Source of the DNA: Candidatus Marsarchaeota archaeon | Lineage (GTDB): Archaea; Micrarchaeota; Micrarchaeia; Micrarchaeales; Micrarchaeaceae | Length of the DNA stretch: 64,000 nucleotides | Assembly (NCBI GenBank): GCA_023485545.1 | Contig: JAMCZI010000005.1 | Span: 967 to 64,966 of the forward strand | Reading direction: 5' to 3' | Shown here: positions 8,531 through 51,188 of the stretch, piece by piece | Layout of the letters: every line of letters begins with the position of its first letter | How positions within the stretch are numbered: the first letter of the stretch is position 1 | Translations under genes and position numbers: made by a program | The notes under the pieces: generated by a model | The model's database searches: none | Told to the model about the DNA's origin: nothing | Seen by the model: the letters and a program-made list of their open reading frames with translations, nothing else

Positions 8531-10051
8531 TTGGTTCTTTGCATGATAAGGCTCTCTGACGATTTTTCAATAAGCGAGCAGGACTTGCTCACTGGCAGAT
8601 GCTGCATAATAGGCCAGAGCGGCTCTGGCAAATCGTTCCTCGTAGGGGTCATCGCGGAGGAGCTCGCAAGGGAGCACCTGCCCTTCGTGGTGATAGATAC
8701 TGAAGGAGAATACAAATCCCTCAAGAGCCTGTTCGAGGTCATATGGGTGTCGGATGAGAGCGGAGCCGACGTAGGGATGGATGTTGATTTCTCCGCGCTG
8801 ATAGAGAAAAGCATGCTCGGCATACCGATCGTTTTCGATGTGTCTGGGCAACAGGACCAGGTCGGTAAAGTGTACTCCTTCCTCTCCGAACTTTACGCGG
8901 TGGAAGACAGGGTAAGGAAGCCGTACCTCGCAATAATAGAGGAAGCTGACAAGTTCGCCCCACAGGTAAAGCGCGGCGAGCTCAATATAATTGAGGAGAT
9001 AAGCGTCAGGGGGCGCAAGCGCGGCTTAGGCATATTGGTGGCGACCCAGAGGCCCGCAAACATAAGCAAGAATGTGCTTGCGCAGTGCTCGTACGGTTTC
9101 ATAGGCAAGCTCAGCATAGAGAATGATGTCAACGCAATAAGCATACTTTTCGAGGACAGGAACATGCTAAAGGAGCTTGTGACGCTCCATACCGGCGAAT
9201 TCATGCCTTTCGGCATAGATTCTCCACAGAAGATAAAGATAAGAAAAAGGGTGGTAGAGCACATAAGCTCCACTCCAGAGCTTGGCACGCTTCCCGGAGG
9301 AGACATACATGCTGCGATAGCGGAACTTAAGCACTCATCTGGCCAGGCACAGAAGCGTGATCTTAGCGCGCCTATCCCTAGGATACGAATCATACGCGAA
9401 AGATTCGACATGTCGTACGCGCAGGCGTACGCTTCGCATGCATCTAGGAAGATACTGCCTTTTACCGGCTTTATGGTCAATTCGGTCGAGCCTAGATACA
9501 TGCGCGTCTCATCGACGCTCGTCAGGCTGCCCACAAAGCGGAAGAACGTATACTCTGAAAAATACATCATTTCATTTGGCAGCTCACTCCTGCGGGAGAC
9601 GAAAAAGGGTATAGAGCTGTACGATGTGGGGAGCAAAAAATTTGACAAATCCGCCCTATCCATACTGGCGGAAGTCAATTCTGCAGGGTCCGTCAAGCTT
9701 GGCAAGCTTGAACAGGAATTCGGCCAGTCCTCATCAAAGAGCGTTGAGCGCCTGGCAGATGCCGGAAGGCTAGAGGTAAGGAAGGACAAAGTGACAAGAT
9801 TCCCATGGAAGAGGTTCATGCGGGAGGCCCAATATGAAACTGGAGAGTCTTCGCCTTCGCAAATCACTCCTATAAGGCCAAAGACAAAGATAAGCAGCAG
9901 AGAACTCATAAGATCAATAATACCTGAAGCTTCGATAGTACGGAGGGAAAGCGCTTACTTGAAAGTGTACGAAATCACTCTTAGGCGCGGAAGCACAGTC
10001 AAAGTACTCTTCATAGATTCGCTCACGGGCAAGGAGATAAGGCTTCAGTAG
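8531..10051 (+). CDS. HerA/FtsK-superfamily (DUF87-type) P-loop ATPase with uncharacterised ~250-aa C-terminal extension
   Basis: Walker A GQSGSGKSF, Walker B LAIIEEADKF, VATQRPANISKNVL motif. An ATG at 8543 is a possible alternative start. Confidence 0.7.
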   Translation: MVLCMIRLSDDFSISEQDLLTGRCCIIGQSGSGKSFLVGVIAEELAREHLPFVVIDTEGEYKSLKSLFEVIWVSDESGADVGMDVDFSALIEKSMLGIPIVFDVSGQQDQVGKVYSFLSELYAVEDRVRKPYLAIIEEADKFAPQVKRGELNIIEEISVRGRKRGLGILVATQRPANISKNVLAQCSYGFIGKLSIENDVNAISILFEDRNMLKELVTLHTGEFMPFGIDSPQKIKIRKRVVEHISSTPELGTLPGGDIHAAIAELKHSSGQAQKRDLSAPIPRIRIIRERFDMSYAQAYASHASRKILPFTGFMVNSVEPRYMRVSSTLVRLPTKRKNVYSEKYIISFGSSLLRETKKGIELYDVGSKKFDKSALSILAEVNSAGSVKLGKLEQEFGQSSSKSVERLADAGRLEVRKDKVTRFPWKRFMREAQYETGESSPSQITPIRPKTKISSRELIRSIIPEASIVRRESAYLKVYEITLRRGSTVKVLFIDSLTGKEIRLQ

Positions 10052-11250
10052 CCTATGCTATACTTCCCGTCAACGAGCTCGTTGGTCAGGTAGCCGAGGT
10101 TCTCAAGGGCCGAATCGGCGATGTCGAATATCTTATTCTTTATCGGGTCAGGGCTTGCGCCGCCCTCAAGCGCAACCTCTATGTTCAGGTGCTTGGGATC
10201 TGATATCTTCCTGCCTATCTGCGAAACTATGTAGACGTTGCACTCCTCTATCTGCGGATATATGTTCACTATGTCCTTTGCTATCTCGTTCGCCGCAACG
10301 CTATATATCTTCCCGACGTGGTTGACAGGGTTCTTTCCCGCAGCAGCTTCCAGCGTCATCCTCCTGAAAGGCGTGATGAGACCGTTGACCCTGTTGCCCC
10401 TCCCTACGGATCCGTCGTCTCCAGCCTCGCAGCTCAGCCCGCTCTTCGTGATGTAAACGTCGCCCCCTTTTTCGTCATCTCCTGTATTGACTTCTACGTT
10501 GACTTCAAGGCTCGTTATGCCCTTGGAGAGCTTAATCACAGATTCCTTTACCTTCTCCTTCGACTGTGCATAATCATCCATTGAAGCCAGAAGGTTTCCG
10601 ACCATCGCGGCAGAGATGGTAAGCGATATCACACCAGAATCTCTCACCCCCATCACCTTTATGTCTTCCCCCACCTCGGGTGCGGCTTTCTTGAACTCTG
10701 CACCGTTGAGGAATCTCTCCGCCTCAAGCACCAACCTTTCTGTCTCGCTGAACGGAGCAAAGCCTATTCCGAAAGATGTGTCATTTGCAAGTGGCACGTC
10801 AGCGCTCCTCTTGAATATGCCCCCAAGGTCGCTTGATCCCTTCATCACCTTGGGCGTGTACACAACTTCCTTGTCAACATCAAGGAAACGGGTGTTCTCC
10901 TTCAGGTAATTTCTTGCTGCGTCAACAGCTATCTCATCGACAGGGATGCTGAACCCCGGCCCGCTCCGCACAGCCCTTCCGGAAAGAATGACCTCAACGG
11001 GCTTGGTAATCCGGCATTTGCCAAAAGCAGTCTCCGATTCTCCCCCGACTATGAGCGCTTTGTCAACGTTGTGATGGAGTATCTCTCCTGCCTCCTCGAT
11101 GTACCTTTTGCTGAGCTCGACGCTAAATCTTTCGACTATGCCGTCAATGAGCGTGTCCGGATGGCCCTTGCCCTTCCTCTCCACATACTCGACAGGCTGC
11201 CTAGCCAACGGTGTATAATTGGACTTTGATACCTTTATGTTCCTCATCAA
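10045..11250 (-). CDS. mat: S-adenosylmethionine synthetase, archaeal type
   Basis: 401 aa; N-terminal VERKGKGHPDTLIDG signature and overall length typical of archaeal MAT. Confidence 0.85.
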   Translation of the reverse strand: MMRNIKVSKSNYTPLARQPVEYVERKGKGHPDTLIDGIVERFSVELSKRYIEEAGEILHHNVDKALIVGGESETAFGKCRITKPVEVILSGRAVRSGPGFSIPVDEIAVDAARNYLKENTRFLDVDKEVVYTPKVMKGSSDLGGIFKRSADVPLANDTSFGIGFAPFSETERLVLEAERFLNGAEFKKAAPEVGEDIKVMGVRDSGVISLTISAAMVGNLLASMDDYAQSKEKVKESVIKLSKGITSLEVNVEVNTGDDEKGGDVYITKSGLSCEAGDDGSVGRGNRVNGLITPFRRMTLEAAAGKNPVNHVGKIYSVAANEIAKDIVNIYPQIEECNVYIVSQIGRKISDPKHLNIEVALEGGASPDPIKNKIFDIADSALENLGYLTNELVDGKYSIGY

Positions 11251-11336
11251 TCCAACATCTGCAACTCAAACGCTTAAAAAGCAGAGTGGCGCAGAGTTGT
11301 AAGGCTTTACAAAAGTAACATTGCATTGCGCTGGCC

Positions 11337-13097
11337 TCAGGACTCCTTAGCGCGTGCCTTTATCCCAATTATTGTGTCGAGAAGGCGCTTCTCCTCGTCG
11401 TTCATTATTGAGGCATACTCTCCTTTAAGAAGCCGCTCGTCGGCGTCTGTCACCCGGGTGTACAGCGTCTGCCCCTCCCTGACCTGCCTTCCGAAGGTGG
11501 GCTCGTCCATCGATATTGCCACCGAATCTCCCTTCTTGGCGATGTCGAGCTGGGTCTTCTCGTTCTGTATGCCCTTAATCCTGCCTACAACTGCACCATC
11601 CTCAGTCATCATCACGTACCCCTGCTTTATCCTGCCTTCGAGCACCTCTATGCCGAAGATCGCAGGATGCGACATGCGGAAGCACGAATTGGGCAGCACG
11701 CTTATGCATCCTGGGAAAATAAGCCTCTTCTCAACGTCTGCGAGGCTTTCCTTCTTCTGCTTCTGCACCATATCCTTGTACTCGTCAACTATGCCGTATA
11801 TTATGTTGTTCTTTATGATTTTGATGCCGCTGGTGTCTGCGAACACCTCCGCATCCTGCTCTATTCCGACGTTGAATGCCAGCACCACTGCGGAAAGCCT
11901 GTCTACTGAGTTCATCCCGAAAGCGTCAAGTATATCCCTCCTGTTCACGTTGCCAAGTCCCTTCTTGCTCACCTTGAAGCCCTCCGCAGCAAGGAGCCTA
12001 GATATTGCTTCTATGCTGCCTATCGTGTCTGCCTTGAGCACCACGCCTGTCTTGTCAGTCTTGAATACCTCGCTAATCTCAGCGCTTATCTCCTTGGTGT
12101 AGTCGTTGCCCCCAACCACCTGTATCACTGGCGAGCCCGGAAGCGCATCCTCCAGTGCTGTCGCGCTTATCTTGACTCCTGACGCTGCGTCCACCCTGTC
12201 CACGTAGTAGAACTTGCTTGTAGACTCACGTATCTCGTGCAGGGGCTTGGGCTTCAGCATGGCCCTTATCTTCGTTGTGCCTATCCCGTCAGGAGTGGCG
12301 AAGGCTATCGTGTCGTTCACGCCGAGCGAACCGTCGTAGAGTATCACATCTATTGTGGTGCCAAGCCCCTTGACCTCCTTCTTCTCCAGTATGCTGCCTT
12401 TTCCTGGCCCACCAACCTCTATTTTGAGCTTTGCTTCCATATACTTCTGCGAAAGCCCTGCTACTAGCATTAAGAGCTCGGCTATGCCCTCGCCGCTCTT
12501 CGCGCTGATTGGCACTATGGCCAGCTCCTTGGTGAAATCTGCTATCCTGTCATATCTCTCGCTTGAGAACTCGTACTCGCTCAGCTTTCCTATTATGTAA
12601 AATATCCTGTCCTCAAGCTTAGCCAGCACCTGGCTATTCTGTTTCTTGAGCGCCTCCCCAATGCTCTTCGAGCCTGAAGCTATCCATCCAGTTATGAGGT
12701 CTACCTTGTTTGCAGCTATTATGAACGGGGTTTTGTACTGCTTGAGTATCTCTATGGCCTCTACTGTCTGTGGCTCGAACCCCTTTGTTATGTCGACGAC
12801 CAGTATGGCAAGATCGGCCACGCTGCCACCTCTTTGCCTAAGGTTGGTAAAAGCTTCGTGGCCAGGGGTGTCGATGAAGAGAAGCCCAGGTATCATCATT
12901 TTTGTCCCGCTGCTCTTCAGGAGTGGGCCGCATATCTCATTTACCACGTCTATCGGGACCTCGCTTGCGCCTATATGCTGCGTTATGCCGCCTACTTCCT
13001 TGGCTGCTATGGCGCTGTTGCGTATCCTGTCCAGTAGCGTAGTCTTGCCGTGGTCCACATGACCCATCACGCATATTATGGGCTGCCGTATCATCAA
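11337..13097 (-). CDS. infB: Translation initiation factor aIF5B (IF2 family GTPase)
   Basis: 586 aa. G-domain motifs GHVDHGKTTLLD, DTPGHEAF and NKVD; C-terminal beta-barrel domains. Confidence 0.9.
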   Translation of the reverse strand: MMIRQPIICVMGHVDHGKTTLLDRIRNSAIAAKEVGGITQHIGASEVPIDVVNEICGPLLKSSGTKMMIPGLLFIDTPGHEAFTNLRQRGGSVADLAILVVDITKGFEPQTVEAIEILKQYKTPFIIAANKVDLITGWIASGSKSIGEALKKQNSQVLAKLEDRIFYIIGKLSEYEFSSERYDRIADFTKELAIVPISAKSGEGIAELLMLVAGLSQKYMEAKLKIEVGGPGKGSILEKKEVKGLGTTIDVILYDGSLGVNDTIAFATPDGIGTTKIRAMLKPKPLHEIRESTSKFYYVDRVDAASGVKISATALEDALPGSPVIQVVGGNDYTKEISAEISEVFKTDKTGVVLKADTIGSIEAISRLLAAEGFKVSKKGLGNVNRRDILDAFGMNSVDRLSAVVLAFNVGIEQDAEVFADTSGIKIIKNNIIYGIVDEYKDMVQKQKKESLADVEKRLIFPGCISVLPNSCFRMSHPAIFGIEVLEGRIKQGYVMMTEDGAVVGRIKGIQNEKTQLDIAKKGDSVAISMDEPTFGRQVREGQTLYTRVTDADERLLKGEYASIMNDEEKRLLDTIIGIKARAKES

Positions 13098-13199: not shown

Positions 13200-13766
13200 A
13201 TGATGGAAAGAACACTCGTGCTGATAAAGCCTGATGGGGTATACCGCTCGCTTATAGGAAAGATAATATCCACAATGGAGGACGCTGGTCTCAAAGTTGT
13301 CGGAATGAAGATGGTGCGGCCAGACAAGAAACTGGCTGAGCAGCACTACATCCCTGACGAGAACTGGATGCGTGAGATCGGGGATAAGACCAAGGCGACA
13401 TATAAGGACCAGGGAGTCTCTAACAACGAGGAGCCTGTGGAGATAGGCAGAAGAGTCTGGATGCAGCTCATTGACTACCTAATGAGCGGGCCTGTGGCTG
13501 TGATGGTTGTGGAGGGCAACGACGCGATATTCGTAGTAAGAAAACTTGTGGGTGCAACAGAACCAAGAAAGGCAGATCCGGGCTCGATAAGGGGCAGGCT
13601 CTCAAGCGATTCCTACGCCCTTGCCGATGGGAAGCACCGCGCAGTAAAGAACCTGATACATGCATCGGACGCCCCTGAAACAGCGAAGCGTGAAATATCC
13701 GTCTGGTTCAAGCCGGAGGAACTTATAAAATACTCCAGGTCAGACGAGTCCGCGCAGTACGACTAG
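13200..13766 (+). CDS. ndk: Nucleoside diphosphate kinase (long form with internal insertion)
   Basis: ERTLVLIKPDG, catalytic-His context NLIHASD. An insertion of about 40 aa is present relative to short NDKs. Confidence 0.85.
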   Translation: MMERTLVLIKPDGVYRSLIGKIISTMEDAGLKVVGMKMVRPDKKLAEQHYIPDENWMREIGDKTKATYKDQGVSNNEEPVEIGRRVWMQLIDYLMSGPVAVMVVEGNDAIFVVRKLVGATEPRKADPGSIRGRLSSDSYALADGKHRAVKNLIHASDAPETAKREISVWFKPEELIKYSRSDESAQYD

Positions 13767-14563
13767 ATCGGGACCAGATAATACAGTATCACTAAAAACA
13801 GTGCCACAGCCAGTATAAGCGACAGGAAAGACATCGCGTAGCCCACTCCCTGCTGCTTCGACTCCGTAAACACCGCTAAAGAAATGCTCCATGCAACCCC
13901 AAGTAAAGCCAGCACTCCTCCTACTAGCGCGGAGACATGCGTGCCCAGACCGAAAAGAGGCAATACCGATTCTATTACGCTGATGTATACCCATGGCAGA
14001 TATCCGAATATAATCGCTGCAAATGAGTTGCTATATTCTCCAGAGAATCCCAGGAACATCTTGCCTACCCAGTTGCACAGCTCGGCTACAGCTATCAGTA
14101 TTAACGGCACTATTATGAAATGCTCTAGTAAGAACAGAAATACTGTGCCAGCAAGACCCGAAGTAAGAGCTTTTGGCATTATGCCTATAATGAACGAAGA
14201 AGGCATCATGTAAGATCTGAAGTACGCTGAATTCCCGTAGAAGATAAAAACGGGTATCATAAGAAGCGTAATAACTGCCATCACGCTTATGTAGAAGCCG
14301 CCAAGTCTTCCGGAGTCTATGTCACTGTCAATAAGATCTGACTTGAAAGCTATTACCTTGAATGATTCGAGGAAATCTCCTATGACGTGCACGCCCTCAA
14401 GTTTCTTCCCCATTTTTCTCCTAGCCTTCTCCCTCTCAGGATCCAGGCCGAGATATCTCTCCTCGTTCTCGAGATAAGTCTCTACATCTGGCCTCCTATT
14501 TCCTGCTTTGCCTTGGGATTCCTGGCTCGAAGGGCCATTGTTGACAGCCCAATCAGTATCCAT
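13763..14563 (-). CDS. Multi-pass membrane protein, possibly Yip1-domain family
   Basis: 266 aa. Charged N-terminal ~70 aa followed by about five hydrophobic helices. Its stop shares the CTAG tetranucleotide with the ndk stop. Family assignment is tentative. Confidence 0.45.
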   Translation of the reverse strand: MDTDWAVNNGPSSQESQGKAGNRRPDVETYLENEERYLGLDPEREKARRKMGKKLEGVHVIGDFLESFKVIAFKSDLIDSDIDSGRLGGFYISVMAVITLLMIPVFIFYGNSAYFRSYMMPSSFIIGIMPKALTSGLAGTVFLFLLEHFIIVPLILIAVAELCNWVGKMFLGFSGEYSNSFAAIIFGYLPWVYISVIESVLPLFGLGTHVSALVGGVLALLGVAWSISLAVFTESKQQGVGYAMSFLSLILAVALFLVILYYLVPI

Positions 14564-14660: not shown

Positions 14661-14694
14661 TTTAAATATGTATTTAACTAAATATATATTTATT
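14661..14694 (+). promoter_or_regulatory. A/T-rich promoter region with TATA-like boxes upstream of the T4SS-like operon
   Basis: TTTAAATA at 14661..14668 and AAATATATATTTATT at 14680..14694. An AGGTG Shine-Dalgarno-like element at 14703..14707 lies 7 nt before ATG 14715. Confidence 0.4.
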
Positions 14695-14714
14695 TGAGTA
14701 TAAGGTGTATTACG

Positions 14715-15059
14715 ATGCAGAATAAACAAATCCGAAGTGCATTCTATCCCGTCCTTACGGCAGCTCTTTTCGCTGCAGTCCCTTTCAGCACAACAATTCT
14801 CACTGTGCTCTCAGAATTGCAGTACATACGTGGCGTTTTATACCAAGTGGGCCCTGCACTGAGTGCAGTCTTATTCATTATAGCCGGAATATTCTATGCA
14901 GTAGGGCAGATGTTACCGCCTGACAAGCGAGCCAATTTTCACACGACCGCCATAAACATAATAATAGGTGCGATAATAGTCGCGGTGCTGAGTTTCACTA
15001 GCACCTCTTTGGCAATAGCATCAACACACCTTCTTTCGAACTTTACAAATTCCTCTTGA
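14715..15059 (+). CDS. Small membrane protein with VirB2/TrbC/CedA1-like pilin architecture (candidate)
   Basis: Track ORF 14694..15059; ATG 14715 preferred because it is preceded by AGGTG. Layout: basic n-region MQNKQIRS, hydrophobic signal-like AFYPVLTAALFAAVPF, helix LSELQYIRGVLYQVGPALSAVLFIIAGIFYAVGQML, basic loop PPDKRANFH, then second hydrophobic helix TAINIIIGAIIVAVLSF. Confidence 0.5.
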   Translation: MQNKQIRSAFYPVLTAALFAAVPFSTTILTVLSELQYIRGVLYQVGPALSAVLFIIAGIFYAVGQMLPPDKRANFHTTAINIIIGAIIVAVLSFTSTSLAIASTHLLSNFTNSS

Positions 15060-15068
15060 GTTGAATAC

Positions 15069-16109
15069 GTGATAATACAAGCTTTCGGTGGGTATGCGAC
15101 TGCGTTGACGCTAGTATCACTGATGATAGGAGTATTCGGGATAGTCCTTGGTGTAGGCTATGCAATGGGCAATAAAAAGATTAAAGATTTCGGTTTTGAC
15201 GAACTGGTGCAAGCTTTCATAAGCGCAGCAATAATAGCTACTCTTTATGCTGCATTCAGCTATAACGGCATAATTAGCACCGCAATAGCACAGGTTTTTT
15301 ACAGCGCTAATGCAACTTCTACATGTTATGGATTCTTATCATCCAACCCTGCTATGTGTTTTGCCTATGCGTATACTACCGGGCTTGCACCGATATCGAT
15401 AAATGGGAAATCTTATCCGTCCCTAATGGATAGCGCAGTAACACTTCTTGCCCCCGTTTCAGTATTGTATGGCGTACTGTCAGTATTGGGTTCTATAAAA
15501 TTAAGCGGAATCTTCATAAGCGTTGGGTTCGCAAGTTTCGTGCAGCCCCTTCTTAGTCAAATAAATTACATAATAAGTAGCCTGACGTTCTCAATAATTA
15601 GCCTTGAAATACAGGGCGTAATAATAAAATTTGCTTCTATCGTTGCAGTACCAATACTTCTTCCTGCTGGAATCGTATTACGCGCCCTATATTTTACTAA
15701 AAGGCTCGGAGGGATGTTGATAGCGGTGGCTATAGGCTTTTACGCAGTTTTTCCGCTTACGTATCTTTTGGGGGCGCAGCTGATATCAGCATACGCTTCA
15801 AACCCTGGCGCACTTTCGGAATCAGTATCATCATACTCCGGAGGTGTAATAACCACTTTGCAGTCCACAACGCAACCGACTTTAACCTCTGGGAATTTCA
15901 GTATACTAAGCAGTCTCTATTCAGTTGTGAAAACCGCGATAGCCCCACTTGAAGCGATAGTCGAAGAGTTGATATCCACGATATCGCTGCTTATAACTGA
16001 GGTATTTTTTGTGCCTCTTTTGAGCTTGATGATAACAATAACATCAACGCGTGAGCTTGCAAGGATCTTAGGGTCTGAGATATCATTTGGTAAATTCGAT
16101 ATATTTTAA
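15069..16109 (+). CDS. Polytopic membrane protein (about 7-8 TM), VirB6/TrbL/CedA-like candidate
   Basis: 346 aa with a GTG start 10 nt after the previous stop. Hydrophobic helices run throughout and there is no soluble domain larger than about 40 aa. Confidence 0.45.
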   Translation: MIIQAFGGYATALTLVSLMIGVFGIVLGVGYAMGNKKIKDFGFDELVQAFISAAIIATLYAAFSYNGIISTAIAQVFYSANATSTCYGFLSSNPAMCFAYAYTTGLAPISINGKSYPSLMDSAVTLLAPVSVLYGVLSVLGSIKLSGIFISVGFASFVQPLLSQINYIISSLTFSIISLEIQGVIIKFASIVAVPILLPAGIVLRALYFTKRLGGMLIAVAIGFYAVFPLTYLLGAQLISAYASNPGALSESVSSYSGGVITTLQSTTQPTLTSGNFSILSSLYSVVKTAIAPLEAIVEELISTISLLITEVFFVPLLSLMITITSTRELARILGSEISFGKFDIF

Positions 16110-16125
16110 ACTTGGGCGAAATAGC

Positions 16126-16764
16126 ATGTTTGTGGACATTAGGTGGTATGAAAACATTAAAAAAGCATTTCAAAAATTCATGAAATTCCCCTTTGCTGAT
16201 CCGGATGGCATCAAGCCCGCACAGCAGTGGGAAATTTATGTTTCGAAGTCAGGGCTGTCTGCATATACATTTCACAAAGGAACATATCATGCTGCGGCAG
16301 GGCTGGAATTGGAAAACCCCTCTGGAGCCCCGATAGACGTGGTTGAGAATATGGTGTGCAAGTTAAATATGCCTATTAGGGTGCTAATGGACATAAAACC
16401 CGTAGGGATCAAGCGGATAATCGATGAATTAAAGTTTAAGGCTGCAAAGAAGGAAAATCAAATTAGACAACTGAACCCAAAAAAGCCATCAGGCAAAATA
16501 AAATTAAAAACTTTGGAGGTGCAAACAAAAAAGCTGCGAGAATTTGTGGAAACGATAGAAAATGGACGTATCCCATTCAAGGCATCCTTCATTATAATTT
16601 CGTCTGCAGCTTCACGAAACATCTATCAGGCCGAGGGTGACGCCCGTTCACAACTTGAGTATGCAAAATCAGGATTTGAAACGGTATATAAGTGCAGGTC
16701 AAGATTACTCTCTGGCATAGAAGTAAGAAATGTGCTATGCGGGGCCGAGAACGATGTTTACTAG
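16126..16764 (+). CDS. Soluble basic protein; candidate detached N-terminal domain of a VirB4-like ATPase
   Basis: Track ORF 16087..16764 (TTG start). ATG 16126 avoids overlap with the upstream gene. No P-loop. It sits immediately upstream of, and overlaps, the ATPase-domain gene. Confidence 0.35.
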   Translation: MFVDIRWYENIKKAFQKFMKFPFADPDGIKPAQQWEIYVSKSGLSAYTFHKGTYHAAAGLELENPSGAPIDVVENMVCKLNMPIRVLMDIKPVGIKRIIDELKFKAAKKENQIRQLNPKKPSGKIKLKTLEVQTKKLREFVETIENGRIPFKASFIIISSAASRNIYQAEGDARSQLEYAKSGFETVYKCRSRLLSGIEVRNVLCGAENDVY

Positions 16765-17875
16765 AAAAGAGATGGGCTTGAGCAATTCCAACATAATAGC
16801 TGGATTTATGCCCATTTTTCAGCCTAACGAAGATGCTGGCAGCATATCGAAAAGCGTTGGTGTACCAATAGGATTTAGCGAGAGATACTCGTCATTATTT
16901 CGGCTTGATCTAAATGCACCAGAAAATCCACATGTATCTATAATAGGGATGACCGGATCAGGGAAGACGCATTTAATTAAGACAATTATTTCAGGGACCG
17001 CATTGCTTAGTGAAGAAGTGCAGATAATAATTGACTGGAATGGCGAATATGTGGAATTATCCTTGGAATTAGGCGGTCTAGTTATAGATTTCGCTTTAAC
17101 AGACAGGTTAAAGCGTACTATGATAGAGAACCCGTCGTATAAAATTACCTGCTTTAATCTCTCTAATCTGGACGAGTCAAACCGCAGAAAAATTGCTAGT
17201 GAAATATTAAAGCAAACCCTTATTTACTCAAAATCCAAGGGCTTTAGCAAAAAAGTTGAAACTTTAATATTTGTAGACGAAGCTTGGAAGCTGCTAGACA
17301 GCGAAAGCATTACTGCTATTTTCCGTGAAGCACGCAAATATGGTCTTTCTATAATTGCAGCAAGTCAAATGTTAAGGGATATATCAAATGAAATTGTGGC
17401 TAATTCTGCGACACTTTTTGTTTTTCGGCTTCAGAATCCTGTAGATTTCGATGCGCTCAAATCCCTCAACATATTCGAGAAAATCGGAATCGATAGGATA
17501 AAAGATTTTGGCGTTGGTGAATGCGCGGTTTTAGCTTCGCCGCGTTCTGGTCTAAAGTGCGAAGTTGTGCTGAAAGTGCTTGATCTTACTAATCTAAAAA
17601 CGTATTATATACACGCATCAGGGGTGGATAAATTGGTCAGCGAAAAAAGTATAAAGAGAATTTCTGGCAGGCTTGGAATAAGCGAGAGTATGGTGTCCGA
17701 AGCAATTGCCATGTCCGTAAAAGGACGGCGCATAGATGCAGCAAAAATGTCAGCTTCGCTGTTGAAATCGGGAGTGGAATTAGCAGGTGTAATTACGCTT
17801 ATGCGACTTATTGGCGTTAGGGATATTGATATGTCCAAAATAATCTCAGGACTTTACAATTATAGTAACCGGTGA
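16754..17875 (+). CDS. P-loop ATPase of the VirB4/TrbE/TraC (HerA-FtsK superfamily) type
   Basis: Track ORF 16730..17875; ATGs at 16754 and 16772 are alternative starts. Walker A IIGMTGSGKTH, Walker B LIFVDEAWKLL (the DEAW form typical of VirB4-like ATPases), then REARKYGLSIIAASQMLRDI. Confidence 0.7.
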   Translation: MFTRKEMGLSNSNIIAGFMPIFQPNEDAGSISKSVGVPIGFSERYSSLFRLDLNAPENPHVSIIGMTGSGKTHLIKTIISGTALLSEEVQIIIDWNGEYVELSLELGGLVIDFALTDRLKRTMIENPSYKITCFNLSNLDESNRRKIASEILKQTLIYSKSKGFSKKVETLIFVDEAWKLLDSESITAIFREARKYGLSIIAASQMLRDISNEIVANSATLFVFRLQNPVDFDALKSLNIFEKIGIDRIKDFGVGECAVLASPRSGLKCEVVLKVLDLTNLKTYYIHASGVDKLVSEKSIKRISGRLGISESMVSEAIAMSVKGRRIDAAKMSASLLKSGVELAGVITLMRLIGVRDIDMSKIISGLYNYSNR

Positions 17876-17900
17876 TTCAATTAATGGCAGGGCAATCCTT

Positions 17901-18500
17901 GTGTCAGCAGTGAAGTTAGGTGTAACTTACACCTCCGACAGGAAAGCCATAATCAAAGCATTGTCCACAATTCCCTGTCTCAAGATATTGGATAAAGGGA
18001 CAATAATGAGATACTCAATTGCCGAATCTAATGAACGCGTAAAGCGTACAATTGAGCTAGGCAACGTGATTAGGGTAGTTGCAGAGTACAGCGATTATAA
18101 TCTACTGAGGCAGATAAGAATTAAATCACTGATTTATGCGTTGTCTATTGCATCATTTCTATCAGATTATATTAAAATAGACGTTTCTTCAGCATACTCC
18201 GAAATATTGGATCTTATGTTGCCTGAGATCATGCGCAACGATCAAATATCCACGGATAATAAGGATACTGTACTGCAAGAAGTATCTAAATCAAATTTTA
18301 TCCTATCGCAAAAACTTGTAGAAGCGGTTTCGCTTTTCGAAGCAGCTGAACAAAAAGCAAGCATGCTGCATTCTGCAACCATAAAGCTTTACGGCTGGCT
18401 GCAAAAGAACGTAAGCCAAACAGGCCAGAATGCACCAGCAGATACAAATGCTGCAGGCCTCTCAGATGAAGAGTTGGAACTAGTATTGGGTGGCTTATAA
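17901..18500 (+). CDS. Hypothetical soluble protein of the cluster
   Basis: 199-aa ORF (GTG start) with an acidic C-terminus DEELELVLGGL and no recognisable motif. Coding status is inferred from operon context and tight spacing. Confidence 0.45.
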   Translation: MSAVKLGVTYTSDRKAIIKALSTIPCLKILDKGTIMRYSIAESNERVKRTIELGNVIRVVAEYSDYNLLRQIRIKSLIYALSIASFLSDYIKIDVSSAYSEILDLMLPEIMRNDQISTDNKDTVLQEVSKSNFILSQKLVEAVSLFEAAEQKASMLHSATIKLYGWLQKNVSQTGQNAPADTNAAGLSDEELELVLGGL

Positions 18501-18502
18501 AA

Positions 18503-19357
18503 ATGAACAGCGTTAGGTTACTTATTGTTGTATGGGCGATAGGTGCCTTATCAATAGCCGCCATAATATATGCAAATGGCAATCTTTCAATAAGGTGCCA
18601 ACTTGTATGTCCCTCTTCTATACACCGCTCTGGTAACGCTATAACTTTTAGGCTGCCACGCATTGGTAATGCATCTCAAGTAAAAACCTTGACATTACTA
18701 TATTCTGGCGGCGCAATAATTCTAAACCCAAACAAAAGCGGCGTGTTTGGACTAAAATCTCCAGAATCGCCAGGAGTATATAGTGCTAACCTGTCTTACG
18801 CTGGCGCTAATCTTTTCTCAATATCCTTTGCATACCTTGGGGGCTTAGAATACATACCGTATGTACTGATTGGCGTGTCAATCTTTGCATCAATCGCTTC
18901 AATCTCGGAATATGTATCATCCCTTTCGGATTTTGAATTTTATGTTGGGGATTCGGTATACGATAACGTCGCCCCCTACTCATCCAATGAAATCGAGATT
19001 GAGAGAGCTATCGATATCATAAGGCTAAGGAAATCATCAAAACACGAAAAAATAGGATTTTCAGAACTTCTATTCATGATGCGTGGGATGCATGATTTTC
19101 GTGTTTCACCAAGTGAAGAAATTGTTAGGTACATGATATCCTCTGCAGAAGACAAACACATATGCGATAACTACGACAGACAACCTTCATTTAATTATGG
19201 TGAACTTTATTACGTCATTAAAGAGAGATGTCCTACAACAAATTTTAAACTAATATCTGGTCTTAAAATCCAAGAAGGAAGGAAGCGTTTCCCTAAACAC
19301 AGGCTCCTGTCAACTAGAGTAATTGCAATGATAAATGAAGGTGCCGCGAATGCTTGA
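18503..19357 (+). CDS. Two-TM membrane protein with ~90-aa external domain and ~140-aa C-terminal domain (unknown function)
   Basis: 284 aa starting 2 nt after the previous stop. N-terminal TM LLIVVWAIGALSIAAIIYA and second TM YIPYVLIGVSIFASIASI. Confidence 0.5.
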   Translation: MNSVRLLIVVWAIGALSIAAIIYANGNLSIRCQLVCPSSIHRSGNAITFRLPRIGNASQVKTLTLLYSGGAIILNPNKSGVFGLKSPESPGVYSANLSYAGANLFSISFAYLGGLEYIPYVLIGVSIFASIASISEYVSSLSDFEFYVGDSVYDNVAPYSSNEIEIERAIDIIRLRKSSKHEKIGFSELLFMMRGMHDFRVSPSEEIVRYMISSAEDKHICDNYDRQPSFNYGELYYVIKERCPTTNFKLISGLKIQEGRKRFPKHRLLSTRVIAMINEGAANA

Positions 19358-19538
19358 ACTAGGCAGATACGTAATCAAATCCGCTTTTGTGGTTTCAATG
19401 TTGTCCTTGATAACCTCAATTATAGTATACTCAGTTTCGCTTTCATCAAATGACAAGATTATTAGAAGAATATCAATAAGCATGTCGATTAGTGTGGCAC
19501 TGCTACTCTTCTTTATATTTGCGTACTACCTGGTGTGA
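19350..19538 (+). CDS. Small 2-TM membrane protein (VirB3/CedA2-like size class; speculative)
   Basis: Track ORF 19335..19538. ATG 19350 is preceded by AGGTG (19338..19342). Two hydrophobic segments flank SSNDKIIRR. Confidence 0.4.
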   Translation: MLELGRYVIKSAFVVSMLSLITSIIVYSVSLSSNDKIIRRISISMSISVALLLFFIFAYYLV

Positions 19539-19540
19539 AA

Positions 19541-19834
19541 ATGTTGGATATGGTGAGAAGATTTTATGGAAAACCGAAGGCAAGCGATAATATGCTACTG
19601 CCAGCCTGTTCGGCAATTATTGCATGGGCTTTAGCTTATACTGTGATGCCAGGCAAAGGTATGGCACCTACCTTATTTGATTTTATGCCTCCGGCAGCGA
19701 TATCGATTCCGCTATACGCATATTTGAACATAAAAAGTATACGCGGCCCAGATTCCCGCATTTTTTCCATTGCACTGTTACTCCTCACGTCTATAGTAGT
19801 AATAGCCGCGGTGATATTCAATGGAACACTATAA
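19541..19834 (+). CDS. Small membrane protein (2-3 TM)
   Basis: Track ORF 19535..19834 (GTG). ATG 19541 is preceded by GGTG. It overlaps the downstream ATPase gene by 14 nt. Confidence 0.4.
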   Translation: MLDMVRRFYGKPKASDNMLLPACSAIIAWALAYTVMPGKGMAPTLFDFMPPAAISIPLYAYLNIKSIRGPDSRIFSIALLLLTSIVVIAAVIFNGTL

Positions 19835-22076
19835 TCGTTCTAACTTTTTAGTAGAATCAGTGCCAAATGCGCAGATTGACATTGCAGGGATGTTGCAGGC
19901 AATAGGTGGCCGCACATTTTGCTTAATCCACGATTTTTTAGAAAGGCGAACGTATATTGAATTTTATTGCGATGACGTCGACCAAAGCACGACCATAATT
20001 AAAAAAATTGTACCTGGAATCTCACTTTCCCATGCAGATGTAATTACGATTGGAGAAATGCGTACAAAAGTCCTGTGCCTTTACAAGCAACCCTCTGGTA
20101 CCAGCTTCTTTAGCGAGTCGTTTTCATACTTAAGCTCTTCGAAGCTTTTCGTCTTTTTTATACCAGTGGATCAGATAGCGCTGCACTTGCGTAAGACTGA
20201 AATCGGAAAGCTGTTAAGCAAGGTAGAAGAAAAAGGAACATCTTCCGTGGCTGGCTCTGTGTTCAGTAAGCAGATAAGCACATCTTTACACACTGGCAAC
20301 TATAATGGTAGAGAAGAAGTTGAAATTCTTCGGACTATATTAGAATCTCTAGAAAATTCAATTATGAATGGATTGCCTGCATACAAGGTATATGCCTGCT
20401 TTGACAGCAGAGAGAAATCCATCCTAAATTATGTATCATCAAACTATGCCATAATAAGCAGCTTTGAGTTTGATTCGAGAGGTGATGATGCCCTGCTTCA
20501 TGAACTCGAGAAGTTCAATAGCCTTCCATTCGGGCTTCAATATTCAAAAAACTTCATCTCATTTCCGGTATCTCAAATAAAATACGTAGCTAAGACTGCC
20601 CCTCCTGCTACTTCGGGCAGAATATTGCTTGGCGAGTATGTCAGCAATGGTGCATTCCCAACTGGCGTAGCTGTGCATACTGAAGCCTCAGCATTAAATC
20701 TTGGACTGATCGTTACTGGTATGCCAGGTACGGGGAAGACCTCAGCTGTAATGAATATATTAGAGAGCGTAAGTAGGAATTCCGATGCCAGGATAATCAT
20801 AATATCTCCAACAAGAGAGTGGCGGAAATTTGGGGAGTTGGTAAAGGCAGATGTAATCGACTTGAATAATCCCTCATTAAGGATGAACCTATTCGGTTGC
20901 CCTGACGGATGCTCGGTTTCAAAGTTCTATGAGAACCTTGCCATGGTGCTTTCGCACGCCTCTGCAGCCGGCCCTTACCAGAAACCGCTTGAGAAATGCC
21001 TGCTTGATGCTTTTGAAGGCTTCAAGGATACGAACAATCCAGATCCACTAGAAGTATACAATGCAATAGAAGATTCAGTAATAAGACTGCACGGCAAGAG
21101 GACAAATACTGGCGTAAAGTATACAAAACATGGAGAGAACATCCATTCTGCAGTGGAAGATTTGCGGTTAGTACTAAGGCGCACACAGTTCAGGTCCAGA
21201 GCTGGAGTGGATATATACAATTCACCGAGCCGAAACATTATATTTGACATATCATCGTACGGCTCTCTTGCTATGAGCTACCTATACGCTGTAATACTAA
21301 ATCAGATATATTCGATAGCCGATTCAATGGATGAAATTGGAGAGGACAAGCTCCGATTGGTAGTTTGCCTTGAGGAGGCGCAATTGATATTCGGAGAAAG
21401 ATCGAAGGAGAATGATGCAGCTTTGCGCGATATAAAGAACAGGATACAGGATTTTCGCAAGAAGGGAATCGGATTGGTACTCATAACGCACAATGTATCC
21501 GATATAAATTCCGGAGTGCGTAGCATGTGCCAAACGAAAGCGTACTTCAAGCAAGCGCCTTCAGAGGCGGATAAAGCTGCTTCAGACTTGGTATTCTCTT
21601 TTTCGGAGAAGGAGAGCATAATCACAATGCTGACGCACCTTGAAAAAAGGGTCTTTGCACTTAATTATGTATTAAAACAAGAAGGTAATATGATAACTCC
21701 AGATTCTATATTCGTAAGATCCTTAGATTCATCATTCTCTAGAGTTTCTAAGCATGCGGATTCATCGGTGCCGTTTAAAGCAGTTTCAGAGGAACAGCTT
21801 ATAGAGTGCAGCATCTCATTAGCTTTTGACCCCGATAACACTGCCAAGCATAAAGGTGCTGAAGATCAAATAATTCCTGTCATCGTAGATTTCGGTATCG
21901 AGATTAAATGCGCACGGCAAATCGGAAATTCATACGCTGTAAGGCTTTATAAGCTGCAACGCTATTGGCTCTCTCTGCGCAATAGGAAAGGCGTAGAACT
22001 TTACGGTTCGTACATTCTCGCTGCAAAGCAAGTAACAGCCAGACTGGGCCAGTCCGGTATGGAAATCATTTACTGA
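19821..22076 (+). CDS. Large P-loop ATPase, HerA/FtsK/VirB4-VirD4 superfamily, with ~280-aa N-terminal domain
   Basis: 751 aa. Walker A LIVTGMPGTGKTS, Walker B RLVVCLEEAQLIF, then KKGIGLVLITHNVSDI. No TM segment of its own. Confidence 0.7.
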   Translation: MEHYNRSNFLVESVPNAQIDIAGMLQAIGGRTFCLIHDFLERRTYIEFYCDDVDQSTTIIKKIVPGISLSHADVITIGEMRTKVLCLYKQPSGTSFFSESFSYLSSSKLFVFFIPVDQIALHLRKTEIGKLLSKVEEKGTSSVAGSVFSKQISTSLHTGNYNGREEVEILRTILESLENSIMNGLPAYKVYACFDSREKSILNYVSSNYAIISSFEFDSRGDDALLHELEKFNSLPFGLQYSKNFISFPVSQIKYVAKTAPPATSGRILLGEYVSNGAFPTGVAVHTEASALNLGLIVTGMPGTGKTSAVMNILESVSRNSDARIIIISPTREWRKFGELVKADVIDLNNPSLRMNLFGCPDGCSVSKFYENLAMVLSHASAAGPYQKPLEKCLLDAFEGFKDTNNPDPLEVYNAIEDSVIRLHGKRTNTGVKYTKHGENIHSAVEDLRLVLRRTQFRSRAGVDIYNSPSRNIIFDISSYGSLAMSYLYAVILNQIYSIADSMDEIGEDKLRLVVCLEEAQLIFGERSKENDAALRDIKNRIQDFRKKGIGLVLITHNVSDINSGVRSMCQTKAYFKQAPSEADKAASDLVFSFSEKESIITMLTHLEKRVFALNYVLKQEGNMITPDSIFVRSLDSSFSRVSKHADSSVPFKAVSEEQLIECSISLAFDPDNTAKHKGAEDQIIPVIVDFGIEIKCARQIGNSYAVRLYKLQRYWLSLRNRKGVELYGSYILAAKQVTARLGQSGMEIIY

Positions 22077-23439
22077 TCAGGTACTCGCTTATGCGCTTCT
22101 GCATCATTATGTCGCGCAGTATCTTGCAGTTCCTTATCCAGTCTTTCAGCGGTATGTCCATCTTCGACCTTATGAAGCTGAACAGCTCTTCGGATGTGTT
22201 CATCACCACCGGCTTCATCGTGAGCGCTTCTCTGACATGCTCCCTCACATTCCATACGCCTACGGGCATAAGGTAACCCTCATGGACTTCCCTGAGTATC
22301 ATCACGCGCCCCTGTCCATGCATTTCGCTGAGCTTTTCGGTAACAGCAAGCCTTGCGGCATAATAGCATCCCCCTATTTCGGCATATGTCTTCCTTCCCC
22401 TGTACCCTTCATAAGAAGAGTATATCGATATGTCCTTCCCGTTCTCGTTCCACACCGTTTTCGGGTACCACGCCTCCGCTGATTCATATTCCCAGTTGCC
22501 CGGCATGAATATTATGAGCCAGCGATTATCCAGCGATACGTGGTAAAATGCGTAAATTGCATCAAGGCTTTCGAATGATTTTACATCCTTCAGCAAGTTT
22601 TTCGAAAGCGTGTCATCAACAGCTGTTATGCTCCATCTTGTTGGGACGAACTTCCTTGATTTTCCTCTGCCAAGCGTGCCAGCTGAAAGCGCCTGCTGGA
22701 TTTTTGACACTGGAATGTTGTTTTCGTATAGCTCTATGAGCGAAGTAGTGGCAGTTGCATCTGTGTCGCTGTACGCTTTCTCAAGCTTTCTGTCAGCCTT
22801 GACGTTGTAGAGATCCATAGTCTTCATTATGGCGCTTGGCCCAAACGGCTGCACCTCATCGTTGAAGCTCAACTTTACGAATGGTTTCTTGCTAAAATTC
22901 AGCTCTGCTTCCGCCGGCCTCTCTGCAAGTGCAAGATCTCTTACCATCTCCTCCATGCGCCCTTTCTCAACGTTGTCGACTCTTGTGAGGTGCATGCCCC
23001 TGACTAGCTTTGACCTGTAGCTTACTATGCTTGGAATCGAGAGGTTCCTCCACCTCTCCGGTGTCCCGAGTATGGAAGTGTCGCCGAAAGTGGGCGGCAC
23101 CATCGGGCCTATGAATACCTTTGGATAGCCGAACCTTCCTACAAAAACATCAGTTGGAGAAGAACCCGCGAGCTCAAGCTTGTCTGTCGCAGGCATCATC
23201 TTGACCCTGTAGTAATAGCGCAGCAGCGCCGGGTCGCGCATGTGCCTGTACACTATGTCTGATCGCTTGACGCCGGGGCTGGACTCGTTGAGCTCGTTTA
23301 TGAGGTTCTTCCTGGTCTCGCCTCCAAGCATGCAATCACTACCCTTTCTCAATTCAGATTTATAACCATTTTCAGCATCCGAAACAAGCCATTTTCTTGT
23401 AGAGCTGAAAGAAATATACGCATTATCATACAAAACCAA
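22066..23439 (-). CDS. nreA: Archaeal Nre-family DNA repair protein
   Basis: 457 aa. VFVGRFGYPKVFIGPMVPP matches the conserved GYPxVxxGP block of Nre (DUF650/DUF651) proteins. The true start may be the internal MLGGETRK. Confidence 0.7.
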   Translation of the reverse strand: MVLYDNAYISFSSTRKWLVSDAENGYKSELRKGSDCMLGGETRKNLINELNESSPGVKRSDIVYRHMRDPALLRYYYRVKMMPATDKLELAGSSPTDVFVGRFGYPKVFIGPMVPPTFGDTSILGTPERWRNLSIPSIVSYRSKLVRGMHLTRVDNVEKGRMEEMVRDLALAERPAEAELNFSKKPFVKLSFNDEVQPFGPSAIMKTMDLYNVKADRKLEKAYSDTDATATTSLIELYENNIPVSKIQQALSAGTLGRGKSRKFVPTRWSITAVDDTLSKNLLKDVKSFESLDAIYAFYHVSLDNRWLIIFMPGNWEYESAEAWYPKTVWNENGKDISIYSSYEGYRGRKTYAEIGGCYYAARLAVTEKLSEMHGQGRVMILREVHEGYLMPVGVWNVREHVREALTMKPVVMNTSEELFSFIRSKMDIPLKDWIRNCKILRDIMMQKRISEYLISK

Positions 23440-41468: not shown

Positions 41469-41566
41469 GCAGGGATGGCAGAGCCTGGTCAAATGCGACG
41501 GACTCAAGATCCGTTGACCTAGGTCTACGGGAGTTCAAAACCTGTGAACAAATCTCCCTCCCTGCA
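41469..41566 (+). tRNA. tRNA-Leu (anticodon CAA) with 13-nt non-canonical intron in the T-loop
   Basis: GCAGGGA TG GCA GAGCCTGGTCAAA TGC G ACGGA CTCAAGA TCCGT TGACCTAGGTCTAC GGGAG [20 nt] CTCCC TCCCTGC A. Removing 13 nt between the A-runs (about 41539..41551) restores a canonical TTCAAAT T-loop. A BHB-like fold is possible (see findings). Confidence 0.8.
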
Positions 41567-48596: not shown

Positions 48597-48694
48597 AGCC
48601 TCAGGAGGGATTTGAACCCCCGGCCTTCTGCTTTGTGGCATCCCTAAGCCGGGATTTACCATGCAGACGCTCTGCCATGCTGAGCTACTGAGGC
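48597..48694 (-). tRNA. tRNA-Thr (anticodon GGU) with 24-nt intron at the canonical 37/38 position
   Basis: Reverse complement: GCCTCAG TA GCTC AGCATGGCA GAGC G TCTGC ATGGTA[AATCCCGGCTTAGGGATGCCACAA]A GCAGA AGGCC GGGGG TTCAAAT CCCTC CTGAGGC T. Intron is about 48633..48656. Confidence 0.8.
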
Positions 48695-51153: not shown

Positions 51154-51188
51154 TTGCCGTGGTAATAAAGACTGTAAGAAGTGTGAAA

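Follow-up and report, generated by a model that had tools for sequence, protein, structure and literature searches.

A conserved nine-gene chromosomal cluster of Micrarchaeota that probably encodes a minimal, relaxase-less pilus apparatus resembling a type IV secretion system

Which machine is specified by nine tightly packed genes for a pilin-like protein, two ATPases and a set of membrane and soluble proteins in an archaeon of the Micrarchaeota? The question is raised by a 64,000 nt stretch of contig JAMCZI010000005.1 (positions 967 to 64,966 of the forward strand; assembly GCA_023485545.1, deposited as Candidatus Marsarchaeota archaeon, with a GTDB lineage in the Micrarchaeaceae), hereafter referred to as the window, in which the open reading frame (ORF) listing gives nine plus-strand ORFs (g1-g9) arranged head to tail at positions 14694/14715-22076. 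A preliminary description of the same DNA had proposed a compact membrane apparatus of the conjugation, Ced or Ted type, and the pilin, the two ATPases and the setting in a host-dependent, small-genome archaeon stood up to analysis, whereas the assignment of g2 as VirB6 did not. We consider it probable that the cluster encodes a vertically inherited, relaxase-less, minimal single-membrane pilus apparatus of Micrarchaeota that resembles a type IV secretion system (T4SS), and it is best read as a third archaeal system beside Ced and Ted, analogous to the T4SS encoded on the chromosomes of Patescibacteria. The cluster and its upstream region comprise the following features.

14661..14714, plus strand: A/T-rich upstream region, by reading of the sequence
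14694..15059, plus strand: g1, 121 aa from TTG 14694 or 114 aa from ATG 14715, putative VirB2/TrbC-type pilin precursor
15069..16109, plus strand: g2, 346 aa, polytopic membrane protein
16087..16764, plus strand: g3, 225 aa, soluble protein, overlapping g4 by 35 nt
16730..17875, plus strand: g4, 381 aa, ATPase of the FtsK-HerA superfamily, consisting of the ATPase domain only
17901..18500, plus strand: g5, 199 aa, soluble and fast-evolving protein
18503..19357, plus strand: g6, 284 aa, bitopic or two-helix transmembrane protein, very variable
19335..19538, plus strand: g7, 67 aa, two-helix membrane protein
19535..19834, plus strand: g8, 99 aa, two- or three-helix membrane protein, with a 14-nt overlap into g9 at its start
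19821..22076, plus strand: g9, 751 aa, three-part ATPase, VirB4/CedD-like

The spacing between neighbouring genes ranges from an overlap of 35 nt to a gap of 25 nt, and the ORF listing reproduced exactly all junctions given in the preliminary description, as well as the minus-strand orientation of both flanking genes, a Yip1-family membrane protein gene (13763-14563) and the nre gene (22066-23439). Hydropathy profiles showed a signal-like segment followed by two helices in g1, approximately 6-7 hydrophobic stretches in g2, two in g6, two in g7 and two or three in g8, with g3, g4, g5 and g9 being soluble. The start of the cluster had been placed at 14661, which is a non-coding position where, by reading of the sequence, a TATA-like box begins (TTTAAATA, 14661-14668); another run of A/T follows at 14680-14692, and this A/T-rich region is a predicted promoter. 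The earliest in-frame start of g1 is the TTG at 14694, but the ATG at 14715 is more likely to be used, since it is preceded at a distance of 7 nt by a Shine-Dalgarno-like GGTG motif (14704-14707).

The g1 product combines an N-terminal signal peptide with two hydrophobic helices and the basic loop PPDKRANFH between them; N-x-S/T sequons are conserved in its C-terminal tail. In the alignment of g1 proteins the signal peptide is variable and usually closes with an AxA-type cleavage site, and the mature part follows the consensus FDIIxTLNxIQxxLxQxGPxLSAVLFIxAGIFYAxGQLFPxxKRAxFHTASIDIIIGAIIVAVLS...LLSN-x-T. The window protein matched the Pfam families T4SS_pilin (E = 1e-4) and TrbC (E = 2e-3), in each case under the gathering cut-off, and the only families recurring among its orthologs were TrbC/VirB2 (9/15) and T4SS_pilin (8/15), at a best E of 5.4e-7, with similar recurrence in the wider g1 family (TrbC in 13/32, T4SS_pilin in 17/32). 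A full HMMER scan of 1.84 billion representative sequences recovered only 35 relatives of g1. The top match of the g1-family profile in the PDB was TrwL, the pilin of plasmid R388 (E = 0.031), and direct alignment of the family profile with TrwL using hhalign gave a probability of 82.5% (E = 9.8e-6, 55 columns). The claim that g1 is a VirB2/TrbC-type pilin is upheld by the recurrent Pfam matches together with both TrwL results, and on these sequence relationships g1 is accepted as a putative remote VirB2-type pilin. A further g1-like locus was seen on an archaeal JGI contig (Ga0209777_10003568, GC content 0.51), which was reached via the distant pilin P0232 and also carries genes for ribosomal proteins, GatE and GluRS; here three g1-like pilin paralogues lie in tandem (9545-10906, locus L034), with no ATPase gene within 8 kb.

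The motifs reported for the two ATPases are present, with GMTGSGKTH (Walker A) and FVDEAWKLL (Walker B FVDEAW) in g4, and GMPGTGKTS (Walker A) and CLEEAQLIF (Walker B CLEEAQ) in g9. The P-loop of g4 starts at approximately residue 70, and a barrel domain is lacking. Its Pfam matches were DUF87, AAA_10 and TrwB_AAD_bind, and all 15 orthologs matched the NCBIfam models for CedB (best E = 3e-18), CD1110 VirB4-like, TraC and HerA families, with 12/15 also matching CedD; a profile search of the PDB returned HerA (7.7e-21) and the C-terminal domain of VirB4 (4ag5, 6.9e-11). The g9 protein is built from an alpha/beta N-terminal domain (residues 1-260), an FtsK-HerA core and a C-terminal beta-domain (residues 660-751), and its AlphaFold model (predicted local distance difference test score (pLDDT) 85.1, predicted template modelling score (pTM) 0.79) had R388 TrwK/VirB4 as first Foldseek match in the PDB (E = 2.4e-15, approximately 800 aligned columns), ahead of HerA (2.9e-14). 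Comparison of the model with the VirB4 C-terminal domain gave a template modelling score of 0.64-0.68. Among 54 g9 orthologs, NCBIfam matches were to CedD in 24 (best E = 3e-12), to VirB4-like families in 16 and 11, and to HerA in one; the VirB4-like models match only partially and far under their cut-offs, and the Pfam family CagE_TrbE_VirB, representing the VirB4 N-terminal domain, was not detected in the Pfam scan. The two ATPases are paralogous (hhalign probability 94.8%, E = 5e-8), and single-sequence hhalign comparisons with TrwK gave only weak signals, located at the P-loop for g9 and around the Walker B motif for g4. Both proteins are FtsK-HerA enzymes with VirB4, CedB and CedD as best family and fold matches, in line with the VirB4-like ATPases of the preliminary description. 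A motif G-V-K-Y-T-K-H-G-E-N-I (g9 residues 431-441, positions 21111-21143) is invariant or nearly so in the 54 orthologs and lies in a beta-hairpin and helix start within the helical insert that separates Walker A from Walker B; a role in substrate contact, like that of a pore loop, is conceivable for it.

The nine-gene order and its size pattern (approximately 120/350/240/375/225/150-280/60/90/735 aa) are common to 17 loci from different Micrarchaeota genomes, that of ARMAN-1 included, with all nine ORFs intact throughout and protein identities of 30-90%. Since order and sizes recur in 17 loci, the arrangement is not due to chance, and the contigs bearing it span 0.15-0.94 Mb with housekeeping genes on the flanks, which places it on the chromosome. 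As a chromosomal trait of Micrarchaeota the cluster is syntenic and phylum-wide, a point that the preliminary description had missed. Over g6-g9 the window shares 100% identity with a 2.3-kb contig of 'Candidatus Micrarchaeota archaeon clean1451', which places the window in a Micrarchaeote (DPANN). The g9 family comprises at least 178 homologous clusters at 90% identity; nearly all of the 120 matches listed are 700-770 aa in length, and those with a named source come almost all from Micrarchaeota, Micrarchaeaceae or ARMAN-1. The g2 family (57 clusters) was found in Micrarchaeota only, and that of g4 almost exclusively so. Searches of the viral contigs of IMG/VR, the plasmids of PLSDB and the phages of INPHARED found no relatives of g9, and g4 gave only weak, generic P-loop matches to plasmids.

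Conservation is uneven along the cluster. The mature g1 protein is the best conserved of the region, with 22 invariant positions and 92% identity to the closest relative (locus L001) over the BLAST-aligned part, compared with 84% for the neighbouring aIF5B. In the ortholog alignments g3 and g5-g8 share 10-30% identity, and the accessory genes are 25-50% identical to those of L001, versus 70-84% for the flanking genes. Even at approximately 20% identity g7 and g8 keep their size and hydrophobic helices, and the positions of g3 and g7 are kept in 15 loci.

The membrane protein g2, for which 7-8 transmembrane helices had been claimed, has approximately 6-7 long helices in the AlphaFold model (pLDDT 77.9, pTM 0.69), together with a small ectodomain that carries an invariant Cys86/Cys97 pair. 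No match was obtained in Pfam (15 orthologs) or NCBIfam (47 orthologs), the PDB profile search gave only ABC-transporter noise (E = 0.08), and Foldseek returned nothing with E <0.4 for the model, with TrwI/VirB6 at rank 12 (E = 1.2, template modelling score 0.28); hhalign of g2 against TrwI was also negative. These negative profile, Foldseek and hhalign results removed support for g2 as a VirB6 or CedA homologue, and g2 is retained as a candidate platform or channel of the pilus, which would be an analogue of VirB6, CedA or TedA by position, size and topology only. Hairpin homology has been reported between CedA and CedA1; in our alignment of the N-terminal hairpin of g2 with the g1 pilin the expected regions were paired, but at E = 0.014 and a probability of 3% such a relationship is unsupported.

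For g3, a central coiled-coil-like segment was seen, and there was no match in Pfam, NCBIfam or PDB. The comparisons with the N-terminal domain of g9 and with TrwK using hhalign were not significant, and g3 is unsupported as a detached VirB4-type N-domain; it is possibly a detached N-terminal partner of the g4 ATPase. Most g5 orthologs close with a C-terminal module resembling a helix-turn-helix (HTH) or winged helix, which is truncated in the window, and the g5 profile gave only weak matches to HTH regulators in the PDB (E = 0.04-2) and none in Pfam. In the window and in loci L001, L002 and L006, g6 has an extra N-terminal transmembrane helix and a beta-rich ectodomain of approximately 90 aa that other lineages lack; Pfam and PDB searches with g6 gave no matches. 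One of 15 g7 orthologs matched CedA2 at E = 0.13, which we regard as a chance match. Comparison of g8 with R388 TrwM/VirB3 by hhalign was negative, as were the Pfam and NCBIfam searches, and the resemblance of g8 to the VirB3 that adjoins VirB4, in size and position, is an apparent analogy only. Judged by sequence, the putative membrane base of the apparatus is not recognisably homologous to VirB6, VirB3, VirB8 or CedA.

No gene for a relaxase, an integrase, VirB7-11 or a PilB/FlaI-type ATPase is present in or beside the cluster, which supports the absences given in the preliminary description. Genes for a relaxase, a membrane-anchored coupling protein, an integrase or replication functions were absent from the cluster and its flanks in the window and from the L001, L002 and L033 neighbourhoods, and no tRNA gene adjoins the cluster in the window. 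As to the Ced membrane components CedA, CedA1 and CedA2, no Ced model of NCBIfam was among the matches of g1 or g2 at E ≤ 1.

Upstream of the cluster the window carries, in order, genes for a GT4 glycosyltransferase, a TPR-AAA ATPase, a 506-aa DUF87 ATPase, AdoMet synthetase, aIF5B, NDK and the Yip1-like membrane protein, and downstream those for Nre, an M24 peptidase and arginase. Other genomes have different flanks, for instance GatDE and AhpC in L002, and the synteny of Nre and the M24 peptidase with the cluster is kept across divergent genomes. The gene for Nre (Nre_N/Nre_C), by description a DNA-repair protein of archaea, is convergent with g9 and overlaps it by 11 nt in the window; the two genes also adjoin one another convergently in nine further distinct Micrarchaeota loci, and in four more nre lies approximately 0.7 kb away. 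This adjacency could be plain synteny or could reflect a functional link between DNA import and repair. The Yip1-family gene, situated between NDK and g1, is not found at that place in L001, and is therefore a lineage-specific insertion outside the conserved cluster.

Elsewhere in the window, the 506-aa DUF87 protein (8531-10051, plus strand, 4.6 kb upstream of the cluster) is a third FtsK/HerA-type ATPase, with its P-loop at residues 17-65 and a weak TraG P-loop match; it adjoins the TPR-AAA+ ATPase (6914-8452, plus strand) and is syntenic in L001 only. A giant 2041-aa PKD-domain protein (51159-57284, plus strand) is followed by a 663-aa ORF (57313-59304, plus strand), and a 693-aa protein with a Big_1 Ig-like domain is encoded at 27204-29285 on the minus strand; all three may be surface or adhesion proteins. 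There are also two 98-nt tRNA genes with apparent introns, at 41469-41566 (plus strand) and 48597-48694 (minus strand), one of which was detected by Rfam only and the other identified as tRNA-Phe(aaa) by ARAGORN.

Two archaeal systems derived from VirB2, VirB6 and VirB4, Ced and Ted, are chromosomally encoded and import DNA (PMC9905601), and both were compared with the cluster. Ted of Thermoproteales (TedC, TedA and TedB; PMC9905601), compared here by its published features, is chromosomal, relaxase-less and single-membrane like the cluster, and shares with it a pilin gene directly followed by a gene for a polytopic membrane protein of approximately 350 aa. The Ted pilin has a cleavable signal peptide of the signal peptidase I type, as g1 does, Ted uses a VirB4-family ATPase, and DNA-repair genes are located nearby in both cases (Rad50 and HerA-like for Ted, Nre for the cluster). 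Differences are that Ted has one ATPase and the cluster two, that the cluster has five extra conserved genes (g3 and g5-g8), and that no sequence similarity could be detected between g2 and the known VirB6-like proteins. Furthermore, the hosts of Ted are free-living hyperthermophiles, whereas the cluster is found in an acidophilic or mesophilic episymbiont of the DPANN archaea. Ced of Sulfolobales (CedA, CedA1, CedA2, CedB, CedD and CedE; PMC11868833, PMC11823120) works with two paralogous VirB4-derived ATPases, CedB and CedD (PMC11868833), which is reminiscent of g4 and g9; the CedB model is the best match for g4 orthologs (15/15) and CedD the most frequent one for g9 orthologs (24/54). Ced also has small accessory two-helix membrane proteins and imports chromosomal DNA without a relaxase, but g2 does not match CedA, g7 does not match CedA2, and the CedA1 pilin is unprocessed whereas g1 has a signal peptide. 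The Ced genes are dispersed, UV-induced and work together with Ups type IV pili, in contrast to the cluster with all its genes in one operon.

The Patescibacteria, also known as the candidate phyla radiation (CPR), are like Micrarchaeota ultra-small episymbionts with reduced genomes, and carry a phylum-wide, chromosomal, relaxase-less T4SS with VirB2-like pilins (PMC12102498), which are picked up by the same Pfam models as g1 (PF04956 and PF18895). Their VirB2 genes form pilin arrays, which the tandem g1-like pilins of L034 resemble. The patescibacterial T4SS is, however, a bacterial system from the MPF-FATA lineage, in which homologues of VirB3, VirB6 and TrsD can be recognised; apart from the pilin and the ATPases, no protein of the Micrarchaeota cluster has recognisable homology to it. 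In the Trw system of R388 (TrwL/VirB2, TrwM/VirB3, TrwK/VirB4 and TrwI/VirB6), TrwL aligns with the g1 profile and TrwK is nearest to the g9 model; the small membrane protein gene g8 directly precedes g9, as virB3 does virB4. Compared with Trw, the cluster lacks VirB1, VirB5, VirB7-11, the coupling protein and relaxase, is not plasmid-borne, and shows no similarity between g2 and TrwI or between g8 and TrwM. The cluster therefore combines a Ted-like gene order and processed pilin with a Ced-like ATPase pair and a Patescibacteria-like genomic status. In the literature searched, coverage of which is incomplete, we came across no account of such a cluster from Micrarchaeota or DPANN; type IV pili and Sec/Tat are the only secretion systems named in the genome paper on Mia14 (PMC5498576), and Beltran et al. 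make no mention of DPANN.

Several results weigh against a T4SS-like pilus apparatus. The window g1 protein scores 22.7 bits, under the Pfam gathering score of 26.6, and the ATPase scores against CedB and CedD are 43-55 bits, with 43-47 bits for the window proteins, at cut-offs of 600-700; as these scores are an order of magnitude under the cut-offs, g4 and g9 are not members of the curated VirB4, CedB and CedD families, and as far as can be judged from sequence their relation to CedB and CedD is that of a related design, not membership. HerA gives g4 scores as good as those of VirB4 and CedB, and g4 taken alone is inseparable from HerA. The proposed VirB6 identity of g2 failed in all searches made, by sequence and by fold, with no link to VirB6, TrbL or CedA, and g3 and g5-g8 have no recognisable relatives in the Pfam, NCBIfam, PDB and PHROG searches made. 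The GC content of the cluster is 0.41, versus 0.50 in the rest of the window, and is below that of the flanks in 13/17 loci (not so in L002, L006 and L017); this dip may stem from a recent lateral replacement, in which the cluster was exchanged between Micrarchaeota, or from a compositional bias of fast-evolving genes. Finally, a 658-kb Micrarchaeota contig (L030) has a g9 homologue on its own (9938-12106), with g1-g4 not within 10 kb and unrelated thioredoxin reductase-like, ArsR-like and DinB-like genes as neighbours, indicating that the cluster has been split or partly lost in some lineages.

The same pilus apparatus might serve for attachment to a Thermoplasmatales host, or for the injection or extraction of proteins or metabolites, instead of DNA movement. 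Support for such a function comes from the relaxase-less T4SS of Patescibacteria, for which a review cites a single experimental study reporting the genes to be essential for epibiotic growth (PMC12102498), from tubular pili, possibly T4SS, at a parasite-host interface (bioRxiv 10.64898/2026.06.21.733656), and from giant surface proteins of Nanohaloarchaea with VirB4-like ATPase domains, for which effector secretion has been proposed (PMC10266531); the lineage-specific ectodomain of g6 and the fast evolution of the accessory genes would also fit. Conversely, no effector, adhesin or chaperone gene is recognisable in the cluster, the nearest archaeal systems Ced and Ted import DNA, and the best-scoring ATPase families are DNA translocases, and we regard attachment or effector transfer as unlikely. 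Far less probable is a remnant, domesticated or in decay, of an integrated conjugative element whose function is DNA export through classical conjugation. The gene content, a pilin with two VirB4/TraG-like ATPases, is reminiscent of archaeal conjugative plasmids, the GC dip is strong in the window, and the Mia14 paper speculates on conjugative elements in genomic islands (PMC5498576), but the surroundings of the cluster in the window, L001, L002 and L033 showed neither a relaxase, integrase or replication gene nor an att-like tRNA flank or a plasmid partner, and the retained Nre and M24 peptidase synteny, the intact ORFs in 17 loci and the lack of homologues in the plasmid, phage and viral collections searched all argue against it.

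A membrane-associated DNA-repair or anti-phage defence system of the HerA type could account for the best PDB matches of g4, which are the HerA proteins of SIR2-HerA and DUF4297-HerA defence complexes, for the HerA matches of all 15 g4 orthologs and for the DNA-repair protein Nre abutting the cluster. It does not fit the other genes, as no NurA, Sir2, DUF4297 or other nuclease or effector partner was matched among the cluster proteins, g9 orthologs match HerA once compared with CedD 24 times and VirB4-like families 16 times, and five of the nine products are membrane proteins, one of them a VirB2-type pilin; the chance that it is correct appears slight. The least credible alternative is a virus-derived module, in which either an inovirus-like Zot/pI assembly ATPase would be accompanied by coat proteins or a packaging ATPase of the PRD1/STIV type by membrane proteins. 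The Pfam Zot family matches g9 over its gathering score (25.1 bits, residues 514-578 only), PHROG family 2666 (terminase large subunit) matches g4 at 4e-18, and STIV B204 is among the PDB matches of g4. However, PHROG matches were confined to the ATPase cores, with none for the other seven proteins, and in a library of viral structures the top matches of g9 were VirB4-like proteins of Bacillus phages G and JL, with Zot at rank 45 (E = 2e-3) and packaging ATPases at 1e-6 or worse. Chromosomal inheritance and the lack of relatives in IMG/VR and INPHARED also speak against a viral origin, as do the two helices of g1, which are VirB2-like, whereas inovirus coat proteins have a single helix.

If the cluster encodes a T4SS-like pilus apparatus, Sec would insert g1 and signal peptidase I would cleave it, as its sequence suggests. 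By analogy with VirB2 pili, the mature two-helix pilin would then leave the membrane and, probably in company with lipid, polymerise to form a thin and hollow pilus. The solved VirB2 pili (F- and T-pilus) provide a model in which the loop faces the lumen and the C-terminus points outward. In the g1 pilus the basic inter-helix loop would thus line the lumen, with the glycosylatable C-terminal tail outward. The membrane base may be built from g2 and g6-g8, going by position and topology, and the two paralogous VirB4/CedB/CedD-like ATPases, related by homology, would act as hexameric motors, g4 together with its putative partner g3, and g9; g3/g4 and g8/g9 may form translationally coupled pairs. 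The cargo might be nucleic acid, pulled into the Micrarchaeote from its Thermoplasmatales host or from sibling cells and used for nucleotide supply, gene acquisition or recombinational repair. We favour such import since Ced and Ted import DNA, and since the T4SS of Patescibacteria has been linked to the uptake of host macromolecules (PMC12102498; bioRxiv 10.64898/2026.06.21.733656); even granting a T4SS-like apparatus, it is a tentative choice with somewhat less than an even chance, to which attachment or effector transfer is the chief alternative, and in which both direction and nature of the cargo are proposed entirely by analogy.

Pili-like connections between ARMAN and Thermoplasmatales cells have been imaged, without machinery being assigned to them (recounted in PMC5498576). 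A bolder proposal, which we consider doubtful, is that the cluster encodes the physical conduit between ARMAN/Micrarchaeota and Thermoplasmatales, in the form of a lipid-containing, VirB2-type hollow pilus with two motors resembling DNA translocases that would import host DNA or RNA into a symbiont unable to make its own nucleotides. If true, no earlier T4SS-type machine for the import of nucleic acid from one species into another would be on record in Archaea, and it would be an independent archaeal counterpart of the patescibacterial T4SS, with a base (g2 and g6-g8) unrelated to VirB6, VirB3 and VirB8. For the supply of DNA, nucleotides and macromolecules to DPANN from their hosts, the nine-gene operon offers a concrete set of candidate genes. 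Should the T4SS-like reading be correct, domesticated systems of this kind in Archaea would reach beyond the Crenarchaeota with Ced and Ted, and the cluster would supply very divergent T4SS base components, or non-homologous replacements of VirB6, VirB3 and VirB8, for evolutionary and structural study. It would also mean that the ultra-small symbionts of both domains, CPR and DPANN, have converged on retaining a relaxase-less T4SS.

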